From assembly GCA_040437565.1 (NCBI GenBank), contig JBDOQK010000034.1, positions 248,001-312,000 on the forward strand: DNA of 64,000 bases. Direction: 5' to 3'. The position numbers and the translations under genes were made by a program. Positions 5,101 to 26,388 of this stretch are shown piece by piece. Numbering within the stretch: position 1 is the first letter of the stretch; every line of letters begins with the position of its first letter. The stretch comes from Albugo candida (lineage: Eukaryota). Under the pieces are notes generated by a model, which was not told the origin of the DNA, did no database searches, and was given only the letters and a program-made list of their open reading frames with translations.

Positions 5101-8100
5101 CTCTGAAATGAAAGCCCAATCCAATATTCCACGGTGGTATACGAAAACTTTCTCGAGACCGACTGCACCAACGACTGCGAGATCCCCCCAAAGGCCGACC
5201 GTACGAGGACCTCCGTATCGATGGGAAGACGCGGAGGCCAGATTGTGAGTGAGTCGAGATTCCAGAATCCAATTTATAGGCTGATGCTTCTGACTTTTGT
5301 AAATAACTGCATGAGGATGCCTTCCTGGACTTCCGATTATTGCACGGAGACTTTCAAAGGTACAGTCGAGCGCTACAGAAGCTCCAAATTCCTGACCTTC
5401 CAAACATTCCGGCGGTACTAATTTGCTATGTAGTTCCCAATATCCCACTCGAAGAACAAATGTGTACACAGCGCCACAGGAAGTAGTGCGTCCGTCAACA
5501 TCGAATCTCTCTTTTGGTGCACCGATAAGCGCAATCCCGTAAATATCGCAAACACTAACACAAGCGCCAAATTCTGCCATTAACTGACGACTCTTTCCGG
5601 CATGAAGAAGCCCCAAGCTGATACGGGTACCGGAACCTCCATCTCCATTATCTTGAATAGTTAAAGTCGACCATAGAGACCCGGGAGAGCTTGGATGAAT
5701 TCCTGGAGAGGAAAGCCGTAATGTGAATTTATCATCGGGCTCTTCGAGTGCATAGTCATCAATCGTTTTAAATTCAAAGCTTTGGGAAATTCCGTCGCCG
5801 ATGTTTTCAAAATAAAGCTTCTTAGAGTCGACCACATAGTCTGAAAGACCTGCATTATCATACGTGCCATCATGCCACAATGAAGCTTCTTTTTTCTTCT
5901 CAATGTCATTGAAGACAGCGTGACTTTCATCCCATACTAATTTGCGAGTAGAATCGTCCTCTGGTTCGTGTGAAATGTATACATCTGCCGAACGGAGTGC
6001 GTTAACGTCCTTTGCGAGCAACTCGCGATGTATGACAGGAATTTTGATCGTATCGCCTTCAATGACTGTGTATGTATCGGATGAAAAACCAAGAGCGAGA
6101 ACATTCAGATCAAATGCAAATGCATCTCCAGCTGGATGATCTCCAATGATGGCGGTTCTGCCATAAATGGCTATCGCCGCACCATAATTGTTCAGCTGCT
6201 TGAATCTCGGTCGTAACGTTGCCTGCTCTATCCATTTATGGTTGCTTCTTTCAAACACATACACACTGTTATCTAGCCTTGGTGAAGGTTGCTGAACCCA
6301 TTCCGTCTTGATCCTTGGCACAGTACACGTTTCAAAGCCGCAAGTTGTTTCTTCGACATTGAGTAAGGAGGCCCCCTGGTCAGCCCCAAAGGTCAAGAGC
6401 CATGAGATACCATTCAGATCGGTTGTACGACTCACCGATACATCTTCTATCAGCAGTTCTTGATGTAGAATGGCCTCCATCGTGTTGACATCCACATTAA
6501 ATTTGATCGGTTGGGTCTCGAGCCGGACGATTTGCTTGCGTTTGTTGACATCTTGGACCTTTCTGCAAGAAAGACGGAACTCATCCTCACCATATGAATC
6601 GTATGGGGAAGAATCTATTGTCGTGATGCGAATATGCTGGATAGGATCTGATAATTTGTGAGTAGATTTCGGAGATTCTAATGCATTCACTATGATAATA
6701 TTTCTCGATACTGAAACTTTACGTCCAAAGCGATCGTTTGGTGACGTGTTCAAGCCGACCAGCATCGTCTCCATCGTAAAGTATATTAGTCCTGGATCTT
6801 CTCGTACAAAGACGAAAGCAGCGCCGGTATTGGAGCCTACCACAAGTGTCGTGATCTCGGTCATATCAAGAGCCACATCACAGCCGAAAAAGTCTCCCGC
6901 ATATCCATGAGTCTGTGAGAGCTCCTGTTGTAGATTATAACGATTCTGGTTGATGTCATAGTCGTAAATAAACACTGAGCCAGGACTCGATACTGATCCT
7001 GGTGCTCCGATTGCGATTGTCACTTTGGATGATTTACCTGAAATGGCAATTGCTTCACCAAATCGACGTGGCTGTAATGAAAGAAGCGTTTGGAGCGTTT
7101 GTAGTAAGATCCAAGAATCATTTCCCGGGATGTATTGGTAAATGTATACCCGACCAGTATTATTAGAGGATGCCGGTGCCCCGACTACGCCAAAAGTTTC
7201 GAAAATCGTGACGGATGCTCCAAATTCACGCACAAAAATGATATCAGTAGCTGGAATTTGAAGTTTTGCAGTTTGATTCCAATTCCCATCATTCATTTTT
7301 TTGAAAATGTATGCTGCTCCAGCCTGGGATCCTTGCACTTCTTGTCCATCCAAATGGAATGATCCCGAGCTCTCTTCTATAACATTGATGATTCCCTGGC
7401 TCCCTTGTTTGTACAGCGAAGACTTGTCAATTGTCAGTACATCGTTCCTTCCATATCCTCGACCAAATGCTTTCACTATTCGTATTGGCGCATTGGAGCA
7501 TAGACTTGTAAAATAAGATACTATCACACTATTCTCAGGTACATTCCATAAGCTAGAGAGGCTTTGCTGTAGTATTTGACGGTTTGCATTGAATGGTATA
7601 CGTTCGGTGCTTCTAAACTCGTTCTGTATTATGAATGAGCCTGCATCAGCGTCACAAATGATTGAGACGGAGCCAAAGTCAGCATAAGCAGCCGCATATG
7701 GAGCTCCAACAAGTATTACATCTTGATATAGTGCGATGCTCGACCCGAAACCATCATCAAGTCGCGTATCGGATCCCGTGATAGGCACTGCCGCCTGTTT
7801 CCAAATCCCTTCATCACGAGCATACGTAATAATCGACCCACTCCCCTTTCTACCGTCTTGATACGGAGGGTACATCTGATCCACATGAACACTGATTCGA
7901 ACATTAGTGCCGTGGAGAAGCTTTTGTTCTCGTCCGTCGGAAACCTTGACAATGATAACTGGAGAAAGTGATGGAATAGATTCGATTGATGAAGCAGCGC
8001 GATCCTCCTTTCTTGTGAATGTGATTTTCCAAATCATTGCATGCTTCTTTGTCAGCCGTGTCACTGTCACTTGATACATTGGAGCTACCACACTGATCAC

Positions 8101-11100
8101 TTGCTCAAGATGACGTGCACTGGCATCCACAGGAATGTCTTCTGTCATTCTGGTCGGTAGACCATTCATCCGAACATCGATTCGGTATGTTCCACTAGGA
8201 GGCACTTGACAATTTGTCAGTGTGCGGGTTGAAATCATCGCTCCGTAACCAATAAGCCCTTCACCCTTCGATACGAGCTGCTGGTACTCGTGCACAATGT
8301 CGCTCTTTTTGAAGGTTATGATCCAAGTGAGCTCCATCATGGCGCTTGGCTGTGTCCTTGTAATCTTTTCTACGCTTAATCCCAGGTCATCTAATAAAAT
8401 CGCTGCTAGCTGGACAGATTCAGCATCAACTGGAATAGATCGAGTTTCTTTGGCGTCATATTTCAAGGTGAACGATCCTGAAAGAATTGTTGGTTTGCTG
8501 ATAACAAGTGCCGATGGTGTTCCTTGTCCATCTCCGATTACTGCCTGCGCTCCTGTTAGCGATTGGAATGCAACAGCGAGAGCCTCGAAAGGACCTTCAG
8601 ATGACAAAAACGTTATGGTCCATACAAAAGCATTTCGGCTCTTGCTAAGATTGTTGATTTCTCTAGATACACTCACAGTGTTTTTACCGACACGCAAGTC
8701 GATCTCAATGATGACTGCGATCTGAATCGGATGATAATTGTAATAGATACGCCTCGAAGTCGGACCTGTACCAATACTCAACATGAACCATCCATCGATT
8801 GTCTCGTTTTCCGCCGCATCCGACAGAAGTTTTTGTACTAATGGGCGTTGTGTAGCTCGTGTCGAAATTTCTTGCACTTCATTGATGTAGGAAGACACAT
8901 TGGAGGTAAGGGTCAGCGATTGTATCGATATCACTTCCTGAAAGCGATTCGATTGAGCCCCAACAACGATAGTGTTGTTGTGTATCGCAACGCTCGTGCC
9001 CAGAATATTCCCAGTTGGGGGCCGTAATGCATACACTGATGAATGGGATACAATGACATGGGTCCAAGCTCTTAAGATCTCTCTTTCAATCTTCATTTGA
9101 AAATATATTCGATAATGATTGCCTGGTCCATCTAGAAATATGTCTGTAGATTTTGTGGCTCCACGCACTACGGGAAGGTGTTTTGTACCATGGAACCGTC
9201 TTCCAGGAGGATTCAAATGGATATCAGCATCTTGGATAGCAGTTCCAGCTGTATCAGAAGTCTGCGTAAGAATTCTGGCATCCCCGTCAAGGGTGAGAGA
9301 CGATGTGTCATAGTAATCCAACTGTGATGCATAATCTCCTCTTCGAACAGTGTACTCAAAGTAAAGAGTAGTCTTATTATTATTTTGACCGACATAATCC
9401 GCATAGCGGTTTAGTAACAACCCGGTATCACGACTATGAAGTGATAGTTTGAGCCTCACTGCACCCTCTCCGAGTGTCACGTAGACTGGAGACGAAAACA
9501 CAATCTCTATCGTAACGATCTCACCAAAGGTGTAATCACGATCGGATCCAACAACCTGAATCAGTTCAATAATTGGTTTTCTTCCATCCACAGAGATTTT
9601 TTTATTGTGACCAAGGCTTCCTGGCGTCGACGGTAATGGTAGCTTCAGATAAGCAGTTACTGATGGAATGTCTGCTTGTTGAAATATAGAGCAAGCATGA
9701 TCGTCAGCGGTGTGTATCGTGTCCAGTGAATGCGAGTCTCTGTAGTCCAACCTCATAGAGTAATCATTCTCTTCAATAATGTACAAAAATCGCAATGTAG
9801 TGGAGCCGGAGCCGGCAGAGTAAGTGGCTGGCAGCGACATCGATCCTGCATTGAGCCACAATACCGGAAATCCTTGCACTGTAACGTGACCCGAGAATTC
9901 TACATCAATAGTGATCACATCACCGCATTTATAAATACCATCCGGTAGTGGTGACGTAATCGATAAAACATGAGGCACAAAGGTCGTATTGATGCGGAAG
10001 AGCTGATTTTGCCATTGACCGAATGGAATTGGAGGCATCGGAAGCGCCAGAATTGCGAATGTTGTGGGAATGGATGAGAACCTTTTGATCGAGCATTGTT
10101 CATCACCAAACGATAAGGCATCATTTGATTCGTACGTCAAGTCCATGTGCTCGTCTCCAGATTGAATCACATACGTAAACCATAATAGCTTTCGGTTTCC
10201 TTCGAAAAACCCTCTGCATGGGACCTTCTGACCGTCTTGCGATGTGTTTAAGAACAATGTTGGGCCGGTACAAGAACGAGTGCTATGAGCTGGTACTATC
10301 GTCACAGGACTGCTCCATTCGACAATAATATCGATCACGTCGCCAATAACAAACATGCCGCCATTAACGGATGGGACTAAATTAGTAGAGTAGACGCGTG
10401 AAACCATAGGTGGTGTTGGATCGATATGAATGCCACTAGGCATCACATCTACTCCTTCCAGAGACGAACTAACCGGATCTCCATTGAAGTTGACAATATT
10501 GCAGCCGGAATCGCATACAATCGAGGCATCATCCAGCTTATTGAGACGAAGAGTTGTGTCGTAGGTGCCAACAATGTATTGGAATATCAGCGTTATGGAC
10601 TTTGATCCTGAAATATACAGAGCGGTGGCCTGAGAATTGAGTAGTAGAGTGGGTGTCCCAGTGACCACTACTTCACTAGTGAATGTAAGATTGAGCCGTA
10701 TGACATGTTTGACTCCATAGGAGCCTAAAGGCACATCAGCCCACAGACTTTCAATTGAGGTGCTCTCGGCAATACCGGGATCAATATTCGGTGCGTTTAT
10801 TATAGGTGTTGAGAGCAGCAATGCGGCATCCACAATCGGCATTTGGGCTTTCCGTCGGATTGTAGCACCACATAAAGTTATTGCTCTTCTTGTAGTATAC
10901 GTCATGCCTTGAATAGCTTGATCACCAAGTCGTACTTTGTATAGAAATGTTAGAACTGATGTGCCACTTCCTCCATTGTATTCTGCAAAGCGCTCAATTT
11001 GTCCCACGGATAGCGATATTCTAGGAGTTCCTTTATCTGTGTTCACGACGACCGGAGAAGTGAAAGTGATAGAGATGGGGACTGAATCGCCGGGATACAC

Positions 11101-13620
11101 CGTCACACCCACAGTGTTGCCAGCTGAAATGCTATTGATTGATGGAGTAGCAGAGTCCAGGAGGATCCGGGCGTTTTCGTACAAGGATTTATGGTTTTGT
11201 GAGGACTCCGATAAAGAAGTCTGAGCATCAGAGGAGTTGTAACCATGACGGATATATCGTTGAATAGAGCCCCCATTCAATTCAAGTGCATTATCGTCGC
11301 GATAATTCAGGAAAGAGTTTCCAGTGAGATCATGTCTGTCGCCCACAGCAACAGTGTATCGAAAAGTGAGTTTGAACGACCGATTGCCCGAGAAATAATC
11401 AGCTGGCTGCTTGATAGGACCGCTTTCTAAATAAAGTCGAGGAAGGCCCTGAACCATGACAGGCTTAGTGAATGTTACTTGAATCAGGATAATGTCGCCA
11501 GGGCAATAGATGCCATCGACAGAGTCGGAGGTAACTCCAACATGAGAGTCTACTTTTGGATCCGTAGTGTCGATTCGTATTTGGTTCAAGGAACGGAGGG
11601 TATTTGGATTTGAAATGTCCATCATAGTTGCAGCAACTGTGCTCGGCTCCATGGAGTATCTTTTTATGGATCCACCATTCAGCTCAATCACCGGCCGCAC
11701 GTCCAAGATACCGGCTTGATCACCTTGCTGTACAACATACGAAAATACGATTGTGGACGTATTATTACCACCTGATAGGGTTGCTCGCCGAGCTGGATCG
11801 GATCCACCAACGTTGTCCAAAATGACAAAGAGGAAGGGAAGCCCATACACTGCGACCTCGGCCGAGTATTTGACCTGTATGTAGATAGTTTCTCCGACTC
11901 CGTACTCTCCATCATCAGGTGTCGAGCATTGGATAGACGTGATAAACGGTGTAGATGTGTCGATACTGATAAAACTTTCGATCAAGGAAGCAGGGCTATC
12001 TAGAGGAGGTAGAGTGAGAGTGGCTGGAATGCCGTTGCGATCGGAAATCTCGCCTCCGTTGGGGATCAAGGAGGTAGCTGATGCATACTGCAAAGCATTC
12101 GTAAGATCGTTCGGAGAGACTGTGTACTGAAACAAAAGATGCCGTGACCATGTGCTGAGTGTCACACACGTTGCAACGCTAGGAAGTGAGGATGCAGCCA
12201 GTATCAGACTTGGTGTGCCTGTAGCTAGTACTTCATCTGAGAAAGTTACTCGAACAAAAAGAATAGTGCCAGCTCCATACGGTGTCGTAAATGATGGAAG
12301 AGGTTTCACATCAACTTTTTGCACGACTACTGGTGGTGCATTGATCGAATTCACGGAAACTGAGGTAGTAATCGCCATGCTTGGTACATATACTGTATCT
12401 ACTACTGTTGTGGACGTTGAGACCAGATTACCACCTGCATCAAGAATCTCTACATGGGGCTGTTGACGCATAGGTTCACCATCGGAGAAGCCGTATAAGA
12501 GTGGTTCCACAGAAATTCTGGCTGGGGAACCAACGGCTACGTCGAATCCTGGAGACAGGATGGAGATAGATGTTTCCATCAGATCTCCAGTATCATTTGT
12601 CTTGTACAATGCAAATGACAGGGTGTAGTTCGATCCAGCTTTGTCGATGTTTAAATTACGAAAAACTGCAAGCCCACGTTGCACCTTTGCTGTCGAAAAT
12701 GCTTCAGGTTGTATTTTTCCATTGTACGGATTTGGTGATAAACTAATTCGCACCAAATTTTGTGCTTCATCATCCGGAACGTTGCCACCTGCATCTGTGA
12801 CTTTTAACACGGGCTGAGTACTAAAAGCACATCCTCCTATTGCTGCACTCGGACTTTGGATCACCTGAAGGATCCTACCCTGACCAGGTTGTACACATAG
12901 AGGTTTTGTTTCGACTATGGATCCCCCGACAAGATAATGGTCGATAGTGTATCTCATTCTGTAAAAGCATCCCGCAGCGGTGATATACAAGCCCGAGAAT
13001 CTGGCTCGTCCATTTGATACATTTGCCATGACGTTCGCTGTAGGGAGAAGCTGTCCACGAGAAGTACTTTGCGATAGCTCGACACGAACACTAGCTGTAA
13101 ATTCTTGGACAATGTTACCACCACGATCAACGACTGAAATGATCGGCTGAGGGTGGAAGGCTGTGCCTCCGAAAGCACTGACGCTGTCAGAATCAAGTAA
13201 GAGCTTATAAGCAGGACCCACTCTAACTTCAAATACAGTGGTCTCTGTTATCGAATTGTGAAGTGCGGAATATATAGATAGCCGGTAATCTTTCCCAGCC
13301 TTATCGATAACAAAATTACCACATTGAGCAATTCCATTTACGATTGGATATGAATTATGTTCGGGTTTCAATACTGCGGAAGAAGGCTCTGCTGATTTAA
13401 GGCTTAGCGATACAAATCCTGAATTTATTGTAGTCATAAAAGTATTTTTTTCATCGACCAAATGGACAATTACAGCACTGGTATAAATTTCTCCCGCCGT
13501 CATTGTGATCGGTTGTCGTACTACCTTTAAGATTGTTTCCATTCGTATCATGTAGAGCAAAGTAAAAATAAGAATAATAGTGCATCTCCACCGCAAGCTA
13601 ATAGTCACACTCATTGTCAT
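2195..13620 (-). CDS. Giant secreted/surface protein with Ig-like repeats, 8 bacterial-adhesin-type repeats, FG-GAP (integrin-alpha-like) propeller repeats, 2 Calx-beta-like domains and a levanase-like domain; ~3,581 aa after removing the 680-bp gap+overlap
   Basis: Intronless ORF 13620->3356 continues in 2675->2195 once the duplicated 580 bp (2676-3255 = 3356-3935) is collapsed. N-terminal hydrophobic segment (IILIFTLLYMI). Many FG-GAP motifs (FGSSIAL..VGAP, FGASVT..VGAP, FGEAIA..IGAP, FGSSID..IGAP). C-terminal Calx-beta-like IGFASSLF..EG..V.V.R...DY....GELV...I.VPIVDN...TRVRIDDDD. Confidence 0.85.
2676..3935. repeat. Assembly gap (N 3256-3355) with 580-bp duplicated flanks (2676-3255 = 3356-3935)
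   Basis: Identical sequence on both sides of a 100-N gap, offset 680. Confidence 0.95.
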
Positions 13621-13749
13621 CCATCAATGATGCAATAATGAAAAGAGCATGGATACTGGACAGTCATTTGTGTCCTCTCGTGATATAGTGTCTGTACATA
13701 AATGTATTGTAAACACAAATCCAACACCAAATTCGACATTTGCAAAAAC

Positions 13750-14895
13750 ATGTTCGGTCGTCTCGTGGGCCATCGAGATAAGTTGCGAATGACGCTTGCA
13801 GCTGCAAGTGGATGCCTCGTGAGTGGGATGTTTTTACGAGATACGAGTCTCCATTCGGGCCATAATGAAACGGAACCACTCGAACATATGAAATATCCAC
13901 GACCTCCGACGGTCGGCAAACAGCCAAAAATCAATGGTCTGAAAATTTTCAGCGGAAATGCAAATACAACATTAGCAGAAAATGTGGCCAAGCTGGTGGG
14001 TGTAGAGCTAGGAAAGATCACAGTTGACAGATTTGTCGATGGCGAAGTCGATGTCATGGTTCATGAAAATGTGCGTGGCAAGGACGTTTACATTGTGCAG
14101 CCAACATGCGTACCAGTGAATGAACATCTAATGGAGCTTTTGCTCATGGTTAGCACAATGCGTCGATCTTCCGCTCGTAGAATAACCGCTATCATTCCTT
14201 ATTATGGATATGCACGTCAAGATCGAAAAATGGCAGCACGAGTTCCTATCTCAGCTGCGGATGTTGCCCGTCTTCTCGAAGCCATGGGGGTCGATCGTGT
14301 CATCGCAGTTGATCTACACTGTGGTCAAATCCAAGGTTTTTTTGGACCCCGTGTTCCAGTCGATAATTTGGATGGTGGTCTCGTAGGTGTGTCTTACTTT
14401 GCGAACCATGAGTTAGTCAATCCTGTGATCGTCTCGCCTGATGCTGGCGGTGTTGCTCGAGCGAAAAAGTTTCGAGAGTGGCTTGTGGGTAAATATGGTG
14501 TGCAAAATGTGGGTCTTGCGATGATAATCAAGCAGCGTGTAAGAGCAAATGAGATCGATAAGATGGACCTAGTAGGTAATGTAGAAGGCTCCGATTGTAT
14601 TATTGTAGATGACATGATAGATACAGCGGGTACGTTGTGCAAAGCCGCTCAGCATTTAAACGATCATGGAGCTCGCAATGTGTATGCTTTTGCATCCCAC
14701 GGACTATTTAATGGCGCAGCTAGTGAGAGAATTCAAAAGTCCAATCTTAAAGAAGTTGTCGTGGTGAACACTACCCCGCTTCCAGAAAGCTGCAAAGACA
14801 ACGAGAAGATCACCCAGCTTGATATTGCGCCACTCATCGCAAAGGCAATTCAGAATATACATGATAAGAAGTCTGTATCAATGCTATTTGATTAG
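13750..14895 (+). CDS. PRPS: Ribose-phosphate pyrophosphokinase (PRPP synthetase) with N-terminal extension
   Basis: Motifs FVDGE, ENVRGKDVYIVQ, IPYYGYARQDRK, VDLH, VSPDAGG, IVDDMIDTAGT. The ORF opens at 13702; ATG 13750 (MFGRLVGHR) looks like an organellar transit peptide. Confidence 0.95.
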   Translation: MFGRLVGHRDKLRMTLAAASGCLVSGMFLRDTSLHSGHNETEPLEHMKYPRPPTVGKQPKINGLKIFSGNANTTLAENVAKLVGVELGKITVDRFVDGEVDVMVHENVRGKDVYIVQPTCVPVNEHLMELLLMVSTMRRSSARRITAIIPYYGYARQDRKMAARVPISAADVARLLEAMGVDRVIAVDLHCGQIQGFFGPRVPVDNLDGGLVGVSYFANHELVNPVIVSPDAGGVARAKKFREWLVGKYGVQNVGLAMIIKQRVRANEIDKMDLVGNVEGSDCIIVDDMIDTAGTLCKAAQHLNDHGARNVYAFASHGLFNGAASERIQKSNLKEVVVVNTTPLPESCKDNEKITQLDIAPLIAKAIQNIHDKKSVSMLFD

Positions 14896-14978
14896 AATTT
14901 GATTTTCATCCCCGCGCTTATGTTATAAATGATTCCTGCTTTTGTAACTGATAGTGTCAGCTACGTAACTGACTGCCA

Positions 14979-16328
14979 ATGAAGCAATCGGATCTGCCTC
15001 CAACATTGCCTTCTTATCTTCCGTCAACTACCAACACTTCCATTTCACACAATAAGGAAAGAGATTCTCGCGGTTTACATGCCACGCAATTGAATGCTGT
15101 AACGCCGACACAAACTTTAATGGGGGTAGGATCGAATATTCCGCTCATTCAGGTGGACAAACGACAAGGCTTACGAGAAGATAATGCTTCTGGAAACATA
15201 ACTTCTCGCATTTCAGCCGCCCAATTCACAGCTGGAACTGGAGGTTTAGCTTTCAATCCCAATCTATTGGCCAAAGTGAGTGGAACAGATCCCGCGCTAA
15301 TGGGATCTGAAGACATTCGACAAATCATGCGATGCCCCGATCTGCTATCAATTTATCAAAAGCTACAGGAAGAGGATGACCGGCGACAACGAAGGTGAAA
15401 TGTTGTGCGCTAGCAAGTATGCCGTGTATGCACAATAATAAAGTAAATATCTTGTAGACTGGAAAGAAATCGGGCATCAGCAAAAATGCGTCGAGAGAAA
15501 AAGAGGACAATGGTGGAAGTGTATGAAGCCAAAGTCAATAAACTTGAGCACTCACTCAACTTGATACGAGGTCATTCTTTCGGTGTTGGAAAAGAGAATG
15601 ATCTGGTGAATGCACTAGGTATCACAACTAATATCTATTTTCCTGAATTGATTCTGACGAAATTGAACTTGGATGAAGAGTATTGTGGTGAAGAACATAT
15701 GCGTCATGTATCAATGGCCAAAGAGGCTAAACAGGAACGTCTAACGCACATGCTCACTCAGCATTGTAAATTCAGTAATTCTGTAGGTCAATCGATCCGG
15801 ACTAATATGTGAAAATCTTACTGACCGATATGATGCAGATACGAAAGGCTGGATGGGAAATTCAAGTTCTTGCAGATGATAAATCAAAGCTTTTTGAGTC
15901 TCTGAAAGCAGAACTGAATCTTACTGACGAACAGATCGTTTTGCTGCGATTGTTAAGTGCGGAAATTGAGCATGAAGTTTTTTATTTAGAGATCATAAAT
16001 AAGTGCTTCTCGGCATTGCGAACTCACGAATGGTTGTACTTTCCTGGCATGGAGGTAGTGTATCTTTTCCAAGGCCTGGATGAGCGTAACTTTCTCCCTG
16101 GCATTCAGACACTATTCTCCAACACAAAAGCGGCACTGAGCTTTCAGCAACTTCATAAACTTTTACGCTTCACGACCGAGAATCAAGAAACTATACGCAA
16201 TTTGAAAGTAAGAAACAACATTTATTCTTTTCTGAGCTAAGCTTTACTTTCAGATCTCCAACTCGTCGAGCACAGAGCCCGAAAGCAATCAAGAGACTCA
16301 GATTTACTTCAAATTGAGCGACGAGTAA
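14979..16328 (+). CDS. bZIP transcription factor (multi-exon)
   Basis: Intron 15395-15457 (GT..AG) joins EEDDRRQR-R-LERNRASAKMRREKKR...VNKLEHSLNLI, a basic region N-x7-R plus zipper. Further short introns follow; probable stop at 16328. Confidence 0.85.
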
Positions 16329-16876
16329 GCCAACCGCAGCATCCCACAANNNNNNNNNNNNNNNNNNNNNNNNNNNNNNNNNNNNNNNNNNNNNNNNNNN
16401 NNNNNNNNNNNNNNNNNNNNNNNNNNNNNNNNNNNNNNNNNNNNNNNNNACTGACGAACAGATCGTTTTGCTGCGATTGTTAAGTGCGGAAATTGAGCAT
16501 GAAGTTTTTTATTTAGAGATCATAAATAAGTGCTTCTCGGCATTGCGAACTCACGAATGGTTGTACTTTCCTGGCATGGAGGTAGTGTATCTTTTCCAAG
16601 GCCTGGATGAGCGTAACTTTCTCCCTGGCATTCAGACACTATTCTCCAACACAAAAGCGGCACTGAGCTTTCAGCAACTTCATAAACTTTTACGCTTCAC
16701 GACCGAGAATCAAGAAACTATACGCAATTTGAAAGTAAGAAACAACATTTATTCTTTTCTGAGCTAAGCTTTACTTTCAGATCTCCAACTCGTCGAGCAC
16801 AGAGCCCGAAAGCAATCAAGAGACTCAGATTTACTTCAAATTGAGCGACGAGTAAGCCAACCGCAGCATCCCACAA
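15923..16876. repeat. Assembly gap (N 16350-16449) with 427-bp duplicated flanks (15923-16349 = 16450-16876)
   Basis: Identical sequence on either side of the gap; this explains the duplicate ORF 16468-16767. Confidence 0.95.
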
Positions 16877-17682
16877 TCACATCACTCGATGTGGCTCATC
16901 CATAGTGAGCACCGTTATTTGTATTGGAGCGACATTGAGGTCATGCGAGCATTAGACCTTTTGTCAAACGTCGAATCCGTTCTCTTCCAAACAGAGACAA
17001 AGTAGCAAACAAATCAAGAATACGAACGATGTTCGGCTTTATCGTCCCTCCGAATCATCGCAAGCGGTATCTTAGTCACAAGTGTTGATCGATTACGCTT
17101 TGTGCACTTGCACTACCTTTTCATTCACATGCTCTTATTACAAATTGTACGATATGGTATCAGAAAAATCGACAGAAAAGTAACATTTGATTACTCCATT
17201 ACGTACAGAAATGGACATATTGTACTCGAATTTCGGCTGTTAGCTACTCTCATTTAAACAGTTCGTCACGCGATCAATACTTTGAATGGTGTCTAAGAGC
17301 GATCGTCAAAAATGTTTAGGCCTTGACCAGCTGTCTTATTTAGTTAATGATGTAGTGCATTTTACATGTTCTCCGATCGTAACAGCATTCGCTCTACTAC
17401 ACGCAACTGAACAGCAAAATGGAGTAGGAGTCAGATCTCGAAGCAAAAATAGAAGAAATCGATTCTAATCTACCCAATCAGCTCGAATTATGTATGGCTC
17501 AGTTCCAATATGATACAAATTGCCCCATTTCTGTCAGATTACAAATTTGGTACTCTCTGTGTCACTCTCTGCCCTGACGCAGACCTCGCATTTTCTATTT
17601 TGACATGCCCACCTTTTCACTGAGACGACTGGCCTGATCGTTTTCAAGGGACCTTGTAAAACTCAGTAACAAATAGGGACAC

Positions 17683-20103
17683 ATGCCGCAACATGGTTTA
17701 GAGAAATTGGCGCATGATCGATCGCACAAGATCTCCCAATCGTTGTCGTGGGATCATAAATCCAATCGATATACGCGTTCTCGTCCCAATCCTTTCCTTC
17801 GATCGTGCGCGTGTGAAAAATGCTTGGAACAAGAGCCGCAAGAAAGCTCTCCTCCGTTTCGTTTCTTGCAAAGACAACAAACTGAGTACCAAGAGTACGA
17901 GAGTCTTCGGAATGAGATGCTGTATGAGTTTGCGCTAGATTTGCATAGAAATATGCTGACAAATAGTCGACGTAAATTCTTATTTCGAGTGTATCGAGAC
18001 TGTTTCTCGGGAATGGAGGCAGTGCATTGGATGCTGCAAGCCCGAAAAGTGAGCTCGCTGCATACAGCGATTCTCAGAGGACAATCGCTTTTACAAGCAA
18101 AATATATTGAAGGTGTTATAAAGGACGGAGCCAGAATATTTTCTTACGACAGAAAGCGTTTATATGTTTTTTCAACGATGTTTTTAATGACAATCCAAAA
18201 TGATTTCGCTACAAGCAATTCCACTCATGAATGCACAGCTGGGACCTCTTCAATTTGCCATGATCCTACGTATGCTTACAAGCTCTATACAGCTCCCATA
18301 CTGGAAGCCAGGTCGGAATCTGCTTTGTCATCGGAGAGACCACCGCCTGGAAAAGGCTGTGGCTCTTTTTTTCTCAAAGCAGCCATGTGTGCGCGAGAAT
18401 CAATCGTCGTGGAAAGGTCGAATGCATCCTCTCTCGATAATTCCGAATATGATCTTCTTGACGGTGATCTCAATCAGAGTATACAGCCATTACATCATGC
18501 TGCACGACAAAGGGCGCTAGCTGCGCTAGTTGGTGGTTTTGTCGCCGAGGCTGCCTCCACTTCACTGAATGGAGTCCCGGATCCGTTAAAACTCATTCCA
18601 GAATTCAAATTTCACAGTCGCGATCCAGCTTTTTTTGACACAGCAACAGTCAGCAGAGCATCGGAACAAAACAGTTATCGAATTTCGCTGAGCAAAAAAT
18701 TATTCAGCAGGGATCTCGACCAAAGCTTCTGCAACAACAACGTTAGCATCACTGAGAATGTGAAGCCTTCCTCCACTGGTGTCGAAGCTCGATCCGTTTT
18801 ACACTGCTTTGCGCAACGTAAACAATTGAGTGCAAAGGAAATCGCTAAAGATATTTTGCAAGCCTTCCAGATGCAGAAATCATTACTGGGTCGGGCAGCT
18901 CGCGATTTCGTCGAGAAGGCTGAAAGAAAAGGAGAGAATGTATCTGATTGTTCCGTACACTGCGGTTCCATCGATGTGCTGGTTCTAATTCCCCCTCTCA
19001 TTGTTTTGTATGCTGGGACGCCACAACTCTTCACCAAAGTGAAGCAATATGTGCTCATGTTTTACTCCGGAGCGTACGTAATGGATGTGGCAATGATCGC
19101 TGCATTTGTTCTTGAACAAATCATATTGGGTGCCACCATTCTGGACGCATTGCGAAAAGCAATGCGGTGCGATCATCTCACATCGCGGCAACGGAGTGCG
19201 ATTTACAAATCCTTCACGCAATCTCAGAATCCCACACAGTACGTCTTGCAGAAATATGGAAAGTATGGCAGCAAAGCACGTGGTCTCTACACAATTCTCC
19301 AGCCCTTATTTGCCGAGAATGAGTATAAAGCTGCCATACGTGAAAATATCCTTGGAGGCGGTCGTTCATGCCGAAGAGCAATTTTTCTCGGTGCATGTTT
19401 TGCTGCCCAAGAAGGCTTACAATGCATTCCGAGAGAATGGATTGCAAAAACCCCTTTTTTTGAATTTATTGAAGCCGATATAAAAGCAATTGTCCAACAG
19501 CGCGATTTGTTGCATAGTGTCGAGACCGACAATGGAATACATGGCGAGCGGAATATCCTGGACGATGATCGAGAAGCTAAGCGTGCGTCTATCGTCAGCT
19601 CTCTATTACGACCAACCGAAATTGGATCTTTATATTCTGACGATATGCGACAACGGGACAGTGCTTACAGTCTCGCAGAAAATGAACGACCAAGCACGGC
19701 TTCCCTCCAACCTGTTGGCTCTAAATCTTTATCAGCGTCTAACATTTCTCGTGAGAGCTTTCGGTCGGATTTAATCGATTTTGGAGATCTTCAAAAGTTT
19801 TATCTTACGGAGCCAGTCAGAGGTTCGTCAATCACGTGTACGTCTTCAACACAGTCTTCTCCACCGCAGTCATCCAACAACAAGAAATACGAGCCTCACC
19901 CAACCAATACGATCAAATTATCACGGCCACCACCTCCTCCTCCTCCGTCGACAATCTCACCCGCTGTAACAACCGGAGACAGCGAGCTTTCCCATTGTGC
20001 CGAGGAAATGAAAATCTTGGTCACACAATCGATCGCATTCCAGATTCTATCCATCGACTCGCCAGAAAATCACAGTCCATGTCTCCTTCGAGTTGAGCAT
20101 TGA
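17683..20103 (+). CDS. DEP domain + ADP-ribosylglycohydrolase-fold (J1-crystallin/SelJ-like) protein with Ser/Pro-rich tail
   Basis: DEP: YRDCFSGMEAVHWML...AILRGQSLLQAKYI...F...LYVF. ARH fold: RALAALVGGFVAEAA...PLIVLYAG...YKAAIRENILGGGRSCRRAIFLGACFAAQEGLQCIPREW. Confidence 0.8.
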   Translation: MPQHGLEKLAHDRSHKISQSLSWDHKSNRYTRSRPNPFLRSCACEKCLEQEPQESSPPFRFLQRQQTEYQEYESLRNEMLYEFALDLHRNMLTNSRRKFLFRVYRDCFSGMEAVHWMLQARKVSSLHTAILRGQSLLQAKYIEGVIKDGARIFSYDRKRLYVFSTMFLMTIQNDFATSNSTHECTAGTSSICHDPTYAYKLYTAPILEARSESALSSERPPPGKGCGSFFLKAAMCARESIVVERSNASSLDNSEYDLLDGDLNQSIQPLHHAARQRALAALVGGFVAEAASTSLNGVPDPLKLIPEFKFHSRDPAFFDTATVSRASEQNSYRISLSKKLFSRDLDQSFCNNNVSITENVKPSSTGVEARSVLHCFAQRKQLSAKEIAKDILQAFQMQKSLLGRAARDFVEKAERKGENVSDCSVHCGSIDVLVLIPPLIVLYAGTPQLFTKVKQYVLMFYSGAYVMDVAMIAAFVLEQIILGATILDALRKAMRCDHLTSRQRSAIYKSFTQSQNPTQYVLQKYGKYGSKARGLYTILQPLFAENEYKAAIRENILGGGRSCRRAIFLGACFAAQEGLQCIPREWIAKTPFFEFIEADIKAIVQQRDLLHSVETDNGIHGERNILDDDREAKRASIVSSLLRPTEIGSLYSDDMRQRDSAYSLAENERPSTASLQPVGSKSLSASNISRESFRSDLIDFGDLQKFYLTEPVRGSSITCTSSTQSSPPQSSNNKKYEPHPTNTIKLSRPPPPPPPSTISPAVTTGDSELSHCAEEMKILVTQSIAFQILSIDSPENHSPCLLRVEH

Positions 20104-20370
20104 ACGTTCGAGTATTTATCATCAAAGTAGCACATGTTTGTGATTAAAATGGCAGATTAGCCTATCACTTGTGTGGCTCAAAATAGCGATAAAGTTTGTA
20201 ATGTTCGCCATCGATAAGTAACGTGTGAACATTTTCTGCGCTCGTCAGTTTCGCAACAAAACACAGAAAACACTGAACAATACAGTAGAAGGTGCTCATA
20301 ACTCATACTTTTCATCTAATTCATCTATTTTATCTGTTCTTTCTGTTTATTGTTCCGAATACGGTCAAAG

Positions 20371-22176
20371 ATGCATTCAGAACTCCGAGATGGATTACAC
20401 ATCCAGCAAGTCGATTATTATGACGGCCAATCGATATTTTGCAATTCGCAATTGTGTTACAGTCTTGGAGAATATCTGGGAGGAGGTACCGCAGGCGTGT
20501 ACGTTGAGCTCAGCTATTCTTCCATTTGTGTTCGCTTACTGGATTTGGTGCAAGCAGTGTCTACNNNNNNNNNNNNNNNNNNNNNNNNNNNNNNNNNNNN
20601 NNNNNNNNNNNNNNNNNNNNNNNNNNNNNNNNNNNNNNNNNNNNNNNNNNNNNNNNNNNNNNNNGTACGTTGAGCTCAGCTATTCTTCCATTTGTGTTCG
20701 CTTACTGGATTTGGTGCAAGCAGTGTCTACAAAGCTTTTTGCCATCGAACAAATTGTGTGCGTCGCTGCAACTGCGGTCGATTCTATATCTCATTTGTGT
20801 CAATTAGCATGTTGCAATCAAGATTTTAAATCCTGTGGGGTACAAGCTGGTGTCTCCATCGTTTCTTCCACGTTGTCTGATTGCTGTCCGCGGGAAGGCA
20901 GTGACCACCGCTATAGAAAATCCACATGAGCTAAAGATGGAGTACGTCTTCATTTTTCCATCTTTGAGCTTTGAATAAATTAATGACGTTCTATAGGAAC
21001 GTATTCTGGCTGATTCATCCGACAACAAAGCAGGTTATAACTGCCTGGGAAGACCCGACAACGCAATCGTTAAAAGAACTTCATTTAGCACAATGTATCG
21101 CATTGTGGAAGGATGAGATCACGGAAGCAGACGCGTACAACAAGTGCATTGACACTGTCATGCAGCATCAGCGGTGGAATTTTCCACGAATTCCAAGGAA
21201 ATTTCTGAAGTTTCTCGAGATGCAGCGATGTATCCGTCGTGAGATGGCGGCGATGTCGAGATTGAAACATCATAATAATGTTCTCAAATTGGAGGAAGTT
21301 TTGGAGTTTGTTGAGGAGGCAAAGTGCACAACATTTCTTGTTCTTGAGCTGGCGACTGGAGGCGACTTGTTCGATCGACTTCGCAACCGTGGCGCTGATG
21401 AAGAATTCGCGCGTTTTTACTTTCGACAATTGGTCGAGGGTGTCGCGTTTTGTCACGCGTCGGGCATCTGTCATCGCGATTTGAAATTAGACAATTTGAT
21501 TTTAGCTGATGATCGAGTTCACTCAGTACTCAAAATTGCGGATTTTGGGCTTTCTGCCATTGTTTCAAAGACAACAGGTGATCACTCAGACGGCAAGTCC
21601 AATTTCCGCAGACTCCAATCAGTTATCGGATCCCCATATTATGTCGCTCCAGAAGCGCTGCATGACGCTGGAACCGGCTACGATGGTTTCAAAGCAGACG
21701 GATGGTCGATCGGTGTCATTTTATACGCTATGGTAACAGGAGTGATGCCTTTCGGAAAAAATTTGCCGTCATGTCCGCGTTTTGCTTGTTTTAAAAGCAT
21801 ATTTAGCGACTTGAAACATGAAAACACATCAACCAGAATAGTTGATTCGTTCGATCTCGCAAGTCACTCGCCAAATTGGTTATTCCCTTCTCAGCTATCA
21901 GACGAGCTCAAGGGATTACTCTCCCTTTTATTACATCCCGACCCGTGCTCGCGATTGTCAGTCGAAGAATGCTTACAGGACCCGTGGGTGCTGAAACAAA
22001 CGTTCACTGCAAACGCACCAATCTGCTTAGAGCTTTGTGAGAACAAAACCGGCAATAGTCCTGTTTTTGAAACAGATTCAAAGTGCAATTTCTCAAGAGA
22101 TTCTCAGTGTAACTTCAGTTTGAGCAAAAACAATTCGCTCTCATCGATAACGTCAAGCCTATCGCCCTCACCGTGA
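20371..22176 (+). CDS. Ser/Thr protein kinase (CAMK/SNF1-like) with a long N-lobe insert, 4 exons
   Basis: Spliced exons give LGEYLGGGTAGVVYKA, HVAIKIL, RREMAAM, ELATGGDLF, HRDLKLDN, KIADFG, GSPYYVAPE, DGWSIGVILY. A gap with a 66-bp overlap (20499-20564 = 20665-20730) lies inside. Confidence 0.9.
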
Positions 22177-22566: not shown

Positions 22567-23820
22567 CTACTTGCAATACAAATTACGGTCGATGACGGGT
22601 GGTATCGGTCGTATCTCTGTACCCAGTTCTTGCTCAATTCGATACAAATTGAATCGATCGTCATACGTGATCATACTGATCGCCAATCCTAAATGCCCAA
22701 AACGTCCTGAGCGACCGATTCGGTGCAAGTAAGTTTCAGAGTTTTTTGGAAAGTCGAAGTTGATGACGACATTGACCGTTTGTATATCGATACCACGCGT
22801 AAACAAATCTGAACACACCAAATGCCGAGTAGCCCCATTCCGAAATTCGTGAAATACACGATTTCGATGAGCCTGGCTCATTTTCGCGTGTATATAAAAG
22901 CACGAGTATCCCAATTCTGTAACTTTCTTCGCTAGTAACTCTACTCGATTGACCGAGTTGCAAAAAATGATCGACTGATTGATGTCGAGTTTGGAGAAAA
23001 GTGTGTTTAAGCAATGAACTTTTTGACGCTCCTCAACAAATGCATAGAACTGTGAAACACCTTTGAGTGTTAATTCGTCCATGAGGTTTATTTCGTAAGG
23101 ATTTTCAATGAAACGATCTTTGAAGGCTTTGACCGTGACCGGAAAGGTTGCAGAAAACAGACAGATTTGCCGTTTTTTTGCGGTGTGATTGAGCAATTGT
23201 TCCAATAAAGGCTGAAATTCAGGAGAGAGTAATTTGTCAGCTTCATCCATAATCACCGTAGAGCAATTACTCAAATCCGCAACTCCTTTATTGGCTAGAT
23301 CCATGATTCTTCCTGGTGTGCCAACTAATATATGCACTGTATTGTACAATCTCATAATATCGTCTTTGAGTGAGGTGCCTCCAGTAGAGACCATACATTC
23401 TACACCCATGTGCTTTCCAATTTCTTTCACAATGGCGGACGTTTGTAATGCTAATTCTCTTGTTGGCACTAAAATTAAAACCTGAATGTGATTCTTGCTC
23501 GTTTCCGTTTTCTCAAGACATGGAATAATAAACGCTGCCGTTTTTCCCGTTCCGTTCTTAGCACGTGCCATTACGTTCCTACCGGCCAAAATAATTGGAA
23601 CTGCTTCTTCTTGTATCGGAGAAGGATGTTCAAAACCTTTCTCGAAGATTCCCATCAACAGTTCACGTTTCAAAAAATAATCCTCAAATTCGTTGCCTTT
23701 TACATTAGTCACATCCTCTGTCTGGATGCGTGTGTCTTTTCCAGGTCGCTTCAAACCGGCTTTCCAGTCTTCTTCGTCATTCGCAGCAGCTCGAGCTGAG
23801 TGTCGGCCGTCCATTGCCAT
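22567..23820 (-). CDS. DDX6: DEAD-box RNA helicase DDX6/Dhh1/Me31B
   Basis: [65 protein letters not shown]; intronless; start at MAMDGR. Confidence 0.97.
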
Positions 23821-24011
23821 TTCTTTAAAAGGGGGCGTACTAAAACACGTTCTGTTATAAGACAACGTATCCAAATGTGATACGTTACTGTTAGATGCTA
23901 TGGAAGAAAACTTAACGGAAATTTGATGAATGTACAAAAAGACAATTTTTGTTATCGCGTTAAATGCATGGATGAGTTCGTACTCCAGCTAAAGCGAAAT
24001 ATCTGATCAGA

Positions 24012-25637
24012 TTAATACAGAGGAGCACATGTTGATGAATGCGAGCGACGACGCTCAACAGGGGAAGTGAACTTTCCAGAGACTGACACCTCGGGAGTCG
24101 CAAGGCAAATTCGACGAGCAGCAAAGCCACGAGTTCCATCTGGGCCTGAGGCTTGACGGTACGAGAGAGTTGCAACATCTCCAGCTTGAGCCGATGAGAC
24201 TCGAGGAGATGAAAGTGCCAGCTTCGGTCGTGATCCATTTGAGGAGGAGCGTGAACGGAATAAATTTGGTTGTGACGAGGGAGTTCCCACGGTACTCGAA
24301 CGATTACGACTTTCCCAACGACCTGGGCTTGGTGCACGAAATTCGGTGGGCGTCGGGCTGGCACTTGAACTTGATGGAGGTCGAAATTCCAATCTGACTT
24401 TAGAGGCATACTTGCGGCCGCTCTTTTTGTTTTTTCCGACAGTGAAAGAAACATAGTCTCCAGGTCGGATGTCCATATTACCATCTTCATCGGGAACTAA
24501 TCGGAAGGAGATTGCTGCGTTCTCCAGTCGAGTAGGATTAATCAGACCACCAGCTCCACGGATAGAGTAGACAGTGCCAGTGCTAACTCTTCCTTCCTGT
24601 AAGCCATCAAGTCCTTCCCCAACGGCATCTACGTGTACTGGGCGACTCACCGCAGAGGTTGAACGAGCACGTCGACGATCTCCACCCATTTCAACTGGGA
24701 ACATCTTTTGCTTGAGTTTGTCACAGTTGGTTCCATCGAATAAAACCACCTGCATTCCGGTTCGCCAATTGTATTGGTCCGATAAAGTGAGTACGGCATG
24801 TTTGGCCATTTCTTCGTCAGTGAATTCTATTATAGCATACGTTTCACCGGCATTGATTGGTGGTTTCAATACAGCGTTTCTTCCAGTTGATGTGTTCTGC
24901 TTCAGTAATCGCAAATATGAAATGGTTCCGCACTCAATGAATTTTTCTCGCAAGAAAGCAATTGATGCATCTTCAGGAAGATTGTAAGCAATAGCCGTTC
25001 GTGCCAATTTCCCATTATAAGAGTGTTCGGGAGCCAAAGGTTCTTTGCGACAGACCATAGTTTCATCTTCATTCATGATCAATTTAGTCGATACTTCCAG
25101 CGCTTCTCTCAAAAGACTCAAGTCCGATGTCAGCTTCTTTATACGACCGAACGAAGCAAGCAACTCAAGTTTCACGTAGCCATCTGCGTTCATATTTTTC
25201 AGCAAGTACAAGTCTCCAAGTAGGTTGTCGTCACAGAAATAGAACTCCAACTGATCACACACTGAGCGTAAAAAAGTTGCCGGTAATTGAATTCGTAATG
25301 GCGAAGCTGATTCGTCTTCAGGTACTGAGGCCTCTTGCGAATCATGGTCGCCTGGGTCTACAAAAGACAACGCATCGAAACTCGGAAGAGTCTCAACTCC
25401 ATTCGCATCAACAAAATCACCGTTGGATGGAGAATTCATAGGTGCCATAATGTCCACTGCTGGTGGTGGTGGTAAAGGGAGCTGTGAATTCGAAGCCATG
25501 CCCAATTGTTTCGAATATTTCCAAGTAGTATTTCCAATTGTCGCAGGACGAATGGGAGCGGATGCAGATCGACTCCTACTCAGAGAGTAATATTGAGACG
25601 CTAATTGAGCCATGACATCATCTTCATGCGATTCCAT
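24012..25637 (-). CDS. LARP6: La-related protein (LARP6-like): La motif + RRM + cold-shock-like domain + SUZ-C/LSA motif
   Basis: La motif QLEFYFCDDNLLGDLYLLKNM..DGYVKLELLASFGRIKKLT; RRM RTAIAYNLP...YAIIEF...NWRTGMQV; C-terminal RQASGPDGTRGF. Confidence 0.85.
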   Translation of the reverse strand: MESHEDDVMAQLASQYYSLSRSRSASAPIRPATIGNTTWKYSKQLGMASNSQLPLPPPPAVDIMAPMNSPSNGDFVDANGVETLPSFDALSFVDPGDHDSQEASVPEDESASPLRIQLPATFLRSVCDQLEFYFCDDNLLGDLYLLKNMNADGYVKLELLASFGRIKKLTSDLSLLREALEVSTKLIMNEDETMVCRKEPLAPEHSYNGKLARTAIAYNLPEDASIAFLREKFIECGTISYLRLLKQNTSTGRNAVLKPPINAGETYAIIEFTDEEMAKHAVLTLSDQYNWRTGMQVVLFDGTNCDKLKQKMFPVEMGGDRRRARSTSAVSRPVHVDAVGEGLDGLQEGRVSTGTVYSIRGAGGLINPTRLENAAISFRLVPDEDGNMDIRPGDYVSFTVGKNKKSGRKYASKVRLEFRPPSSSSASPTPTEFRAPSPGRWESRNRSSTVGTPSSQPNLFRSRSSSNGSRPKLALSSPRVSSAQAGDVATLSYRQASGPDGTRGFAARRICLATPEVSVSGKFTSPVERRRSHSSTCAPLY

Positions 25638-26388
25638 TGCTGAGAAAACGTAATATCGATTCAATATTGAATAGTAACGAGTGCGTTAGAGAAACACGAG
25701 CAGTGAATAAGTAGTACGTTCACCCAGCCCACCTGATGAATAAGATGAAAGTTCGGTTGTTGGTGGCAGCTGTTACTCGTTATTTAAAATAGTATCAAAT
25801 GAAAACAAAGTGTTAGCCCCCAGAGTTACGGTATGATGTATTGACCACACCACTTACGACACGCTCAGCCTCTTCCTTATTCTCTTCTATCTTTATAGGC
25901 TTGATTTTTCTATACCAGCCAGCCGAGTTCTGAGACAATAAGGTCAACAGTAATTGTATAGAAAGTAACCTTATCGCTTCAAGAATCGGATAGCCTTTTC
26001 TTCCTCTATGTGACTACATGTCGCCAGAAAAGTAAAATAATTAGAAACACATCTTTCGTAGAAGCTTGTAGGTACATACTCGACAAGACGAAACCAAAAC
26101 TGGTCACCTGATACAACTTTCGATCGTACCCTCGGCCGATGACGTTATAACCGATAGCGCAGCTGCAAAATGAAAAAGGATGCCACGTTTAGAGAAGAAT
26201 CAGCTGTGCGCAACTCTTATGTACTGCGTCAGGCGCGCCCTTGATTGATGCATTTGACGAATAGTGATGAATTTAGGCGTTAAAAAACGGTAAGCTAGTC
26301 GGAAACTTTCTTCCAGCGAGAAGAAAAGTTGTCACGCGGCACTACATCCTTCTGACTCACAAACGAAACAGTTGGCTGTGCCTTTTTT

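Follow-up and report, generated by a model that had tools for sequence, protein, structure and literature searches.

The 64,000-nucleotide stretch of Albugo candida DNA analysed here (the window; contig JBDOQK010000034.1 of assembly GCA_040437565.1, forward-strand positions 248,001 to 312,000) encodes at 17683..20103 (+) an 806-residue protein that couples an N-terminal DEP domain to an ADP-ribosylglycohydrolase (ARH) fold of the SelJ/J1-crystallin type and ends in a disordered tail. As judged from alignments, the metal site of this fold has been turned from acidic to basic: it appears remodelled rather than decaying, because the residues that replaced the ligands are invariant. On balance we favour, with some reserve, the view that the protein is a pseudoenzyme adaptor working close to the membrane, and that the partner held in its remodelled cleft is acidic or phosphorylated.

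The gene is a single exon. Its open reading frame translates without stops or introns, and its closest relative, an ortholog from Albugo laibachii with 74% identity, shares the start MPQH. Four of 14 listed sequencing runs were compared (X1, X2, X9 and X12), and the whole reading frame lies inside a single unspliced RNA contig in X1 (17535-20288) and X2 (17516-20302). No run is recorded as RNA; X1, X2 and X9 are recognized as such because GT..AG introns of the gene upstream, 54 and 46 nt long, are missing from them. Since X1 and X2 belong to one study and the figures for X9 are identical to those for X2, they amount to about one independent RNA source. The fourth run, X12, supplies an unspliced 52-kb contig with seven substitutions in the reading frame, four of them synonymous, three missense and none in the pocket. 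A search for shorter homologous forms returned a single match, a 106-residue fragment of the same protein, with no sign of a split gene. An artefactual fusion is ruled out by the single reading frame, the one RNA contig and the conservation of the family. A secreted effector was likewise rejected, as the N-terminus is not hydrophobic, and inspection of the 806-residue sequence revealed nothing resembling a signal peptide.

Both domains named in the sequence-only reading pass their Pfam cut-offs: DEP (PF00610) scores 46.2 bits against 32.7 over residues 95-163 (17965..18171), and ADP_ribosyl_GH (PF03747) scores 50.6 bits against 26.2 over residues 369-585. An AlphaFold model of residues 76-615, built from a 94-sequence alignment with a mean predicted local distance difference test (pLDDT) of 80.6, contains a DEP unit at about residues 76-170 and a complete all-helical ARH/DraG fold at residues 271-611 (18493..19515). 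The proposed fusion is thus borne out, and its encoding by two separate transcripts is contradicted by the unspliced RNA contig. The best structural match of the ARH part is MJ1187 (Z 30.7, root-mean-square deviation 2.9, 295 aligned residues); coelacanth and human ARH3 match it at Z 29-30 and DraG at Z 29.0, while the DEP part matches P-Rex1 (Z 11.1) and DEPTOR (Z ~11). Between the domains lies a disordered linker of 111 residues (18172..18504; pLDDT <50 over residues 182-260); linkers measure 97-111 residues in four Albugo proteins as against 23-47 in the other two-domain members. In the full-length model the N-terminus, linker and tail are disordered; the predicted template modelling scores of the shorter (0.68) and full-length (0.55) models exceed what a single domain would lead one to expect, but this is a rough indication from which we draw no conclusion. 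NCBIfam profiles gave two weak low-complexity matches far under the cut-off, and the ESM Atlas had no usable match for the whole protein and generic PF03747 clusters for the ARH domain.

The metal site was mapped by aligning the protein with DraG, whose numbering was confirmed on the D97N entry, and with six canonical prokaryotic ARHs. The DraG residues E28, T59-D60-D61, D97, D243, D245, T246 and T247 correspond in the Albugo protein to N296, S363-S364-T365, S400, R561, C563, R564 and R565; of the DraG set, we take T59, D61, D243, D245 and T246 to be metal ligands. N296 closes the segment E289-AASTSL-N296 (18547..18570, +) at the Glu-flap position, S363-S364-T365 (18769..18777, +) stands where the canonical T-D-D does, S400 (18880..18882, +) lies near the D97 position in a less certain register, and R561-S-C563-R564-R565 (19363..19377, +) takes the place of D-x-D-T-T (DraG 243-247). 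The Glu-flap glutamate, the T-D-D and the D-x-D-T with its bridging Asp, which mark active ARHs, are all lacking. Where canonical ARHs have GNGxxMR the Albugo protein has SIDVLVL, and the Arg of that motif has given way to Leu, Ile, Met or Val in 36/36 members of the crown set described below. The motifs AEAAS (residues 288-292) and GGGRSCR (residues 558-564) had been read correctly in the earlier work, and the ligand loss deduced there is upheld by the alignments to DraG and the six ARHs, none of the acidic ligands being kept. TDD had been called absent: the motif is indeed lost, but the segment is not deleted and aligns column for column. The significance given to AEAAS did not survive, as its Glu is peculiar to Albugo and 29/36 members retain the Asp as ADAAS. 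According to the consulted part of one source, E28, D60 and D97 are the catalytic residues of DraG (PMC8120803); another, also in the part consulted, states that ARHs position their substrate correctly only with the binuclear metal centre and its bridging Asp in place (PMC7050489). Because the ligands are replaced and ARH chemistry needs both metals, conventional metal-dependent hydrolysis is not expected: from the known mechanism it follows that the protein should be unable to hold the two Mg/Mn ions needed by ARH1, ARH3 and DraG, and would not be a conventional ADP-ribosylhydrolase.

The replacement residues were followed through 36 crown-oomycete fusions, from which P0159 and P0154 were dropped as near-duplicates and P0191 as a standalone protein. 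The residues N, S, S, T, R, C, R and R are each present in 35 of the 36, the region being missing in the 36th each time, and the S400 equivalent is Arg in 31/36. In the 34 domain-complete crown sequences all seven ligand-equivalent positions are invariant, as against 101/306 ARH columns (33%); the naive p of 4e-4 for this is optimistic, since neither positions nor sequences are independent. The same invariance holds between the Albugo paralogs, whose domains are only 53% identical. Thus the pattern of an ARH pseudoenzyme, with metal ligands lost and the cleft under constraint, is what we observe, and a pseudogene in neutral decay is ruled out by the invariant residues. The gene has been retained and duplicated in a 36.6-Mb genome in which no other ARH gene was found.

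We compared these fusions with 86 near-full-length standalone relatives, leaving out fragments and DEP-only matches. None of the standalone proteins reads TDD, and DTDT is already missing in them. The E28 position is His in 79/86; the T-D-D position typically reads S-P-Y, with Tyr at the D61 position in 73/86; at the D243 position 65 have Asp and 16 have Cys; the D245 position is Cys in 54, leaving 32 without it; and the T247 position is Arg in every one of the 86. The fusion family has additionally lost the His and Asp of the standalone group and fixed N, S-S-T and R-x-C-R-R, with divergent fusions intermediate at the site. In our alignments, therefore, the canonical site is seen to be lost stepwise, with most of the degeneration inherited from the SelJ/J1 group; the sequence-only reading had noticed the degeneration but missed both this inheritance and the invariance of the replacements. 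The group motifs LHWxY, SxYG[DE] and GG[DC]xCSR survive in the Albugo protein only as Ser, Gly, Cys and Arg anchors, and the DEP-ARH fusions are a derived subfamily of the SelJ/J1 group, not typical members. In the consulted part of one account the SelJ group is described as functionally uncharacterized and as including a selenoprotein (PMC13134290). The Albugo reading frame has no in-frame stop that could be a selenocysteine UGA; a selenocysteine insertion sequence was not searched for. The standalone group (P0010-P0147) has a conserved non-canonical site of its own, with His at the Glu flap, S-x-Y and D/C-x-C-S-R, where His, Asp and Cys could bind a metal or carry out catalysis by a chemistry unlike that of ARH1/3.

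Phylogenetic analysis supports the J1-crystallin/SelJ-like ancestry suggested earlier. In a quick IQ-TREE reconstruction of 103 domains the 16 included fusions form one clade (SH-aLRT 100) and the Albugo duplication is lineage-specific, while in a FastTree of 50 domains, with the six canonical prokaryotic ARHs as outgroups, eight fusions (0.999) are nested within the SelJ/J1-like group (0.963). The trees hold no named SelJ or J1 sequence, and the group is anchored by the fish protein P0083, which we presume to be SelJ-like. The stem branch of the fusion clade is long (0.57-0.76). Because the fusions form one clade in both trees, DEP is seen from these phylogenies to have joined a SelJ/J1-type ARH once.

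PF03747 matches the Albugo genome twice, at the window gene and, on a different contig, at its paralog (L001:403-2637; G000:C14), which encodes 744 residues with DEP and ARH domains, the same non-canonical motifs and 39% identity to the window protein. No standalone ARH gene was found in the 36.6 Mb, with the proviso that the assembly may be incomplete and an exon-wise search can miss genes. A profile search in which 8000 candidates were scored recovered 36 proteins, 33 of them with both domains. A library of 1.84 billion representatives yielded 259 matches; the best 30, when scanned, included six with DEP and ARH (one with DEP under the cut-off), P0079 is one further partial fusion, and all ARH-type matches among the best 150 belong to the SelJ/J1 group. 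Two metagenome scans gave no matches. Named hosts of the fusion are Albugo, Phytophthora, Nothophytophthora, Peronospora, Hyaloperonospora, Plasmopara, Bremia, Peronosclerospora, Pythium, Globisporangium and Lagenidium, which answers the earlier call for a survey of oomycetes with a spread over Peronosporales, Pythiales, Lagenidium and Albugo. No Saprolegniales fusion occurs among the named matches from the 8000 scored candidates, from which we do not claim absence; a SelJ-like protein does occur in Aphanomyces invadans, in standalone form. The divergent fusions are P0007, P0008, P0009 and P0079, the ARH domain of P0008 being 28% identical to that of the window protein. There is a hint that P0007/P0009 and P0008/P0155 are divergent fusions encoded as tandem paralogs in one organism.

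These observations can be assembled into a scenario in which Albugo has two copies of a pseudoenzyme adaptor that occurs oomycete-wide, the window gene being one of them. Its ARH domain, of the SelJ/J1-crystallin type, was joined once to an N-terminal DEP domain; the leftover metal-site His and Asp were then lost and Asn, Ser-Ser-Thr and Arg-x-Cys-Arg-Arg fixed, as the alignment shows. By analogy with other members of its family, the basic DEP domain may bring the protein to acidic membranes or receptor tails. It has 15 K/R against 7 D/E in residues 81-165 and an invariant R96-R97, and this net charge and arginine pair are consistent, but only consistent, with binding of acidic lipids or receptor tails. 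DEP domains of oomycete GPCR-TKLs have been proposed to act in G-protein regulation, in the consulted part of one paper (PMC5784254). Charge reversal and invariance together suggest that the old cleft, now rich in hydroxyls and arginines, most probably binds something acidic or phosphorylated, for example a phosphopeptide, a nucleotide or the head group of a lipid.

Short conserved motifs in the Ser/Thr-rich disordered tail probably recruit partners under phosphorylation control. One of them, LIDFGDLQKFY (residues 697-707; 19771..19803, +), lies 3' of a Ser/Thr-rich stretch and corresponds to the family motif D[LF]G[DEN][LM]xx[FY]Y, matched strictly in 32/36 members and as DLGEM in two more. 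Residues 700-704 are the main stretch of the tail with a pLDDT of at least 50 in the full-length model, which does not dock the motif with confidence. An SPRS site N-terminal to the motif is present in most non-Albugo orthologs and absent in Albugo, and a C-terminal S[LIMF]HA[IV]L-COOH is found in 29/36 members and in none of the four Albugo proteins. The poly-Pro run RPPPPPPPS (residues 748-756; 19924..19950, +) is present as had been read, but the scaffolding role ascribed to it is not supported as a family feature, at least five consecutive prolines (PPPPP) occurring in only 3/36 members.

Several points weigh against this scenario. The whole ARH domain is highly conserved, with 155/339 positions at >=90%, and hence the invariance of the pocket is less specific than it appears; most of the crown sequences are also closely related to each other. 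Three divergent fusions that are complete in this region read K-C-C-A-R, E-S-C-I-R and K-C-S-S-R, keeping the Lys of the SelJ group, which makes the triple-Arg pocket a feature that came later and is confined to the crown. Homology predicts that the arginines line a single pocket, and the ligand, partner and localization of the protein are all inferred. X12, a DNA run, shows a 1-nt deletion in a T-run at 18630 (single contig, depth 17.5) that would frameshift the gene; it may reflect an error in assembly or else a null allele. Finally, a catalytic role is conceivable for Cys563, which does not vary among crown members.

The last point leads to the rival that fares best, though we still regard it as unlikely: a metal-independent enzyme with new chemistry in which the thiol of Cys563, at the old bridging-Asp position amid three arginines, acts by nucleophilic attack or by redox on a substrate, phosphorylated or a nucleotide, that DEP delivers at the membrane. 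A Cys combined with Arg-mediated phosphate binding is a known catalytic arrangement, the invariance looks active-site-like, C563 (35/36 crown members, 54/86 standalone relatives) and R565 (35/36 and 86/86) are widely shared, and the parent group includes a selenoprotein (PMC13134290, as consulted in part). However, the divergent fusion P0009 has Ser at this position, 32/86 standalone members lack the Cys, and the two residues through which a thiol might be activated in the standalone proteins, His and Asp, have been lost (N296, R561); in the parts of the literature consulted no activity is reported for SelJ/J1 members.

Somewhat less probable still is an ADP-ribose reader, in which arginines in place of the metals hold the pyrophosphate and the protein responds to ADP-ribose itself or to membrane proteins modified with it. 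It would fit the ARH fold with its basic pocket, and a genome that has PARP-like genes (seven matches on one contig), PARG and a macrodomain gene and in which no other ARH was found. Yet ARH substrate positioning needs both metals (PMC7050489, in the part consulted), the GNGxxMR Arg is lost throughout the crown set, the canonical site was already gone in an uncharacterized parent group, and no PARP or macrodomain match lies on the contig of the window gene. A predicted complex of DEP (residues 72-180), ARH (residues 266-612) and ADP-ribose scored 0.00 with alignments not used and weighs neither way. Of the earlier suggestion of a pseudoenzyme or ADP-ribose-linked adaptor, the pseudoenzyme and adaptor part is thus supported, while the tie to ADP-ribose has nothing but the fold behind it. 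A protein with only a structural part in some larger complex, its cleft kept for folding or as a protein interface with no small ligand, as in mt-SAF23, ArhL and J1 lens crystallins, would accord with ARH-fold subunits among the structure matches (8xqw_G, Z 28.2; 6sga_FP, Z 26.3), with the partial retention of catalytic residues in ArhL (bioRxiv 2024.09.02.610899, in the part consulted) and with the conservation of the whole domain, but is quite improbable given the DEP domain and phospho-rich tail motifs, which suggest regulated signalling, and given that the charge is reversed precisely where the metal ligands were, which is hard to ascribe to folding alone.

Returning to the pseudoenzyme adaptor, its affinities and differences can be traced in several known systems. 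SelJ (SELENOJ) and jellyfish J1-crystallin similarly lack TDD and DTDT and have a Cys in place of the bridging Asp with an invariant Arg at +2, but the Albugo family differs in its N-terminal DEP and long tail, and the H-W-x-Y, S-x-Y-G-D and GGD of the group have become N-G-V, S-S-T-G-[FVI] and GGR in the fusions. DraG, ARH1, ARH3, Tri1 and MJ1187 share the complete fold (Z 24-31, root-mean-square deviation ~3 Å), although identity is only 11-16% and their acidic metal and catalytic ligands are all replaced in the fusions. ADPRHL1 (ARH2), the vertebrate cardiac pseudoenzyme and a paralog of ARH1, is again a dead ARH fold whose ancestral cleft has conserved arginines; its di-Arg, however, replaces the di-Ser of the adenosine loop, whereas in the fusions arginines replace metal ligands, and it has no DEP. 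The adaptor would resemble ADPRHL1 in its way of working, but its arginine-lined dead ARH probably arose independently of ADPRHL1, whose di-Arg cleft is described, in the consulted part of one study, as essential despite the lack of catalysis (PMC7390403). ARH folds within larger assemblies are likewise seen in mt-SAF23 of the trypanosome mitoribosome (a structure match only) and in ArhL of the Chlamydomonas import motor, with catalytic residues partly lost in the latter (same preprint, part consulted), but these are organellar, lack DEP and have shown no close sequence relationship. P-Rex1, DEPTOR, Epac and the oomycete GPCR-TKL-DEP proteins share the DEP fold and basic hairpin; there the partner is a guanine-nucleotide exchange factor, RGS, PDZ or kinase domain, whereas the Albugo protein has an ARH and no transmembrane receptor part.

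In the literature searched, including Phytophthora combined with ADP-ribosylation and DEP, we found no description of a DEP-ARH protein, in keeping with the earlier impression of an undescribed architecture. The 2011 oomycete domain-bigram catalogue by Seidl may list the pair. The Morris 2009 supplement on Phytophthora domain fusions has no glycohydrolase row, 12 of the 26 supplements of the Saprolegnia genome paper gave no match, Perina 2014 in its consulted part lists other ARH fusions with no mention of DEP, and the consulted parts of PMC12077222, PMC6033456 and PMC6309922 do not mention such a protein. Database labels of the orthologs are automatic (hypothetical, 'DEP domain-containing' or 'crystallin j1a-like'). 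The family is real, conserved, auto-annotated and apparently unstudied.

Within the window the gene is preceded by a 3537-residue open reading frame with repeated extracellular-looking domains (3010-13623, -), a PRPP synthetase (13702-14895, +) and a spliced bZIP-like gene with weak Pfam support (~14973-16900, +), and followed by a Ser/Thr kinase (20968-22176, +), a DEAD-box helicase (22567-23988, -), which we take to be DDX6-like, and a La/RRM protein (24012-25685, -). No functional link with the PRPP synthetase, bZIP-like, kinase, helicase or La/RRM genes is evident. The 4418-nt RNA contig from X1 continues from the window gene through a 79-nt GT..AG intron (20288-20368) to beyond 20498, toward the downstream kinase gene, which may be read-through, overlapping untranslated regions or contig joining. 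Gaps of 100 N flanked by duplicated sequence occur at ~20498-20731 and ~16300-16500; RNA contigs run straight across the former, and its gap and duplication look like scaffolding artefacts. Elsewhere in the genome, the seven PARP-domain matches, intron-split and representing ~3-4 genes, share one 102-kb contig with the only macrodomain match (L003, L005, L006, L004; G000:C79), and the PARG gene is on a different contig (L007, G000:C53).

These putative signalling proteins constitute a strongly conserved, apparently undescribed family in the oomycetes, a group with major crop pathogens among its members. They offer what appears to be an independent case of an ARH fold becoming a pseudoenzyme lined with arginines, with a parallel in ADPRHL1, which is essential in the heart. 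The change in two steps, from the canonical site to the SelJ-type H/D/C and on to N/R/C/R, provides testable residues for both the fusions and the SelJ/J1 group. As a bolder speculation, against which we would wager, the N/SST/RxCRR cleft might be a new kind of module for recognizing phosphate, or an active site that uses Cys and Arg and no metal, delivered to the membrane by DEP to read or reverse phosphorylation of oomycete G-protein-coupled receptor (GPCR) tails or phosphoinositides, which would make the protein a core regulator, specific to oomycetes, of their unusual GPCR-bigram signalling. If it proves essential, this family, so far seen mainly in oomycetes, would be a possible control target.

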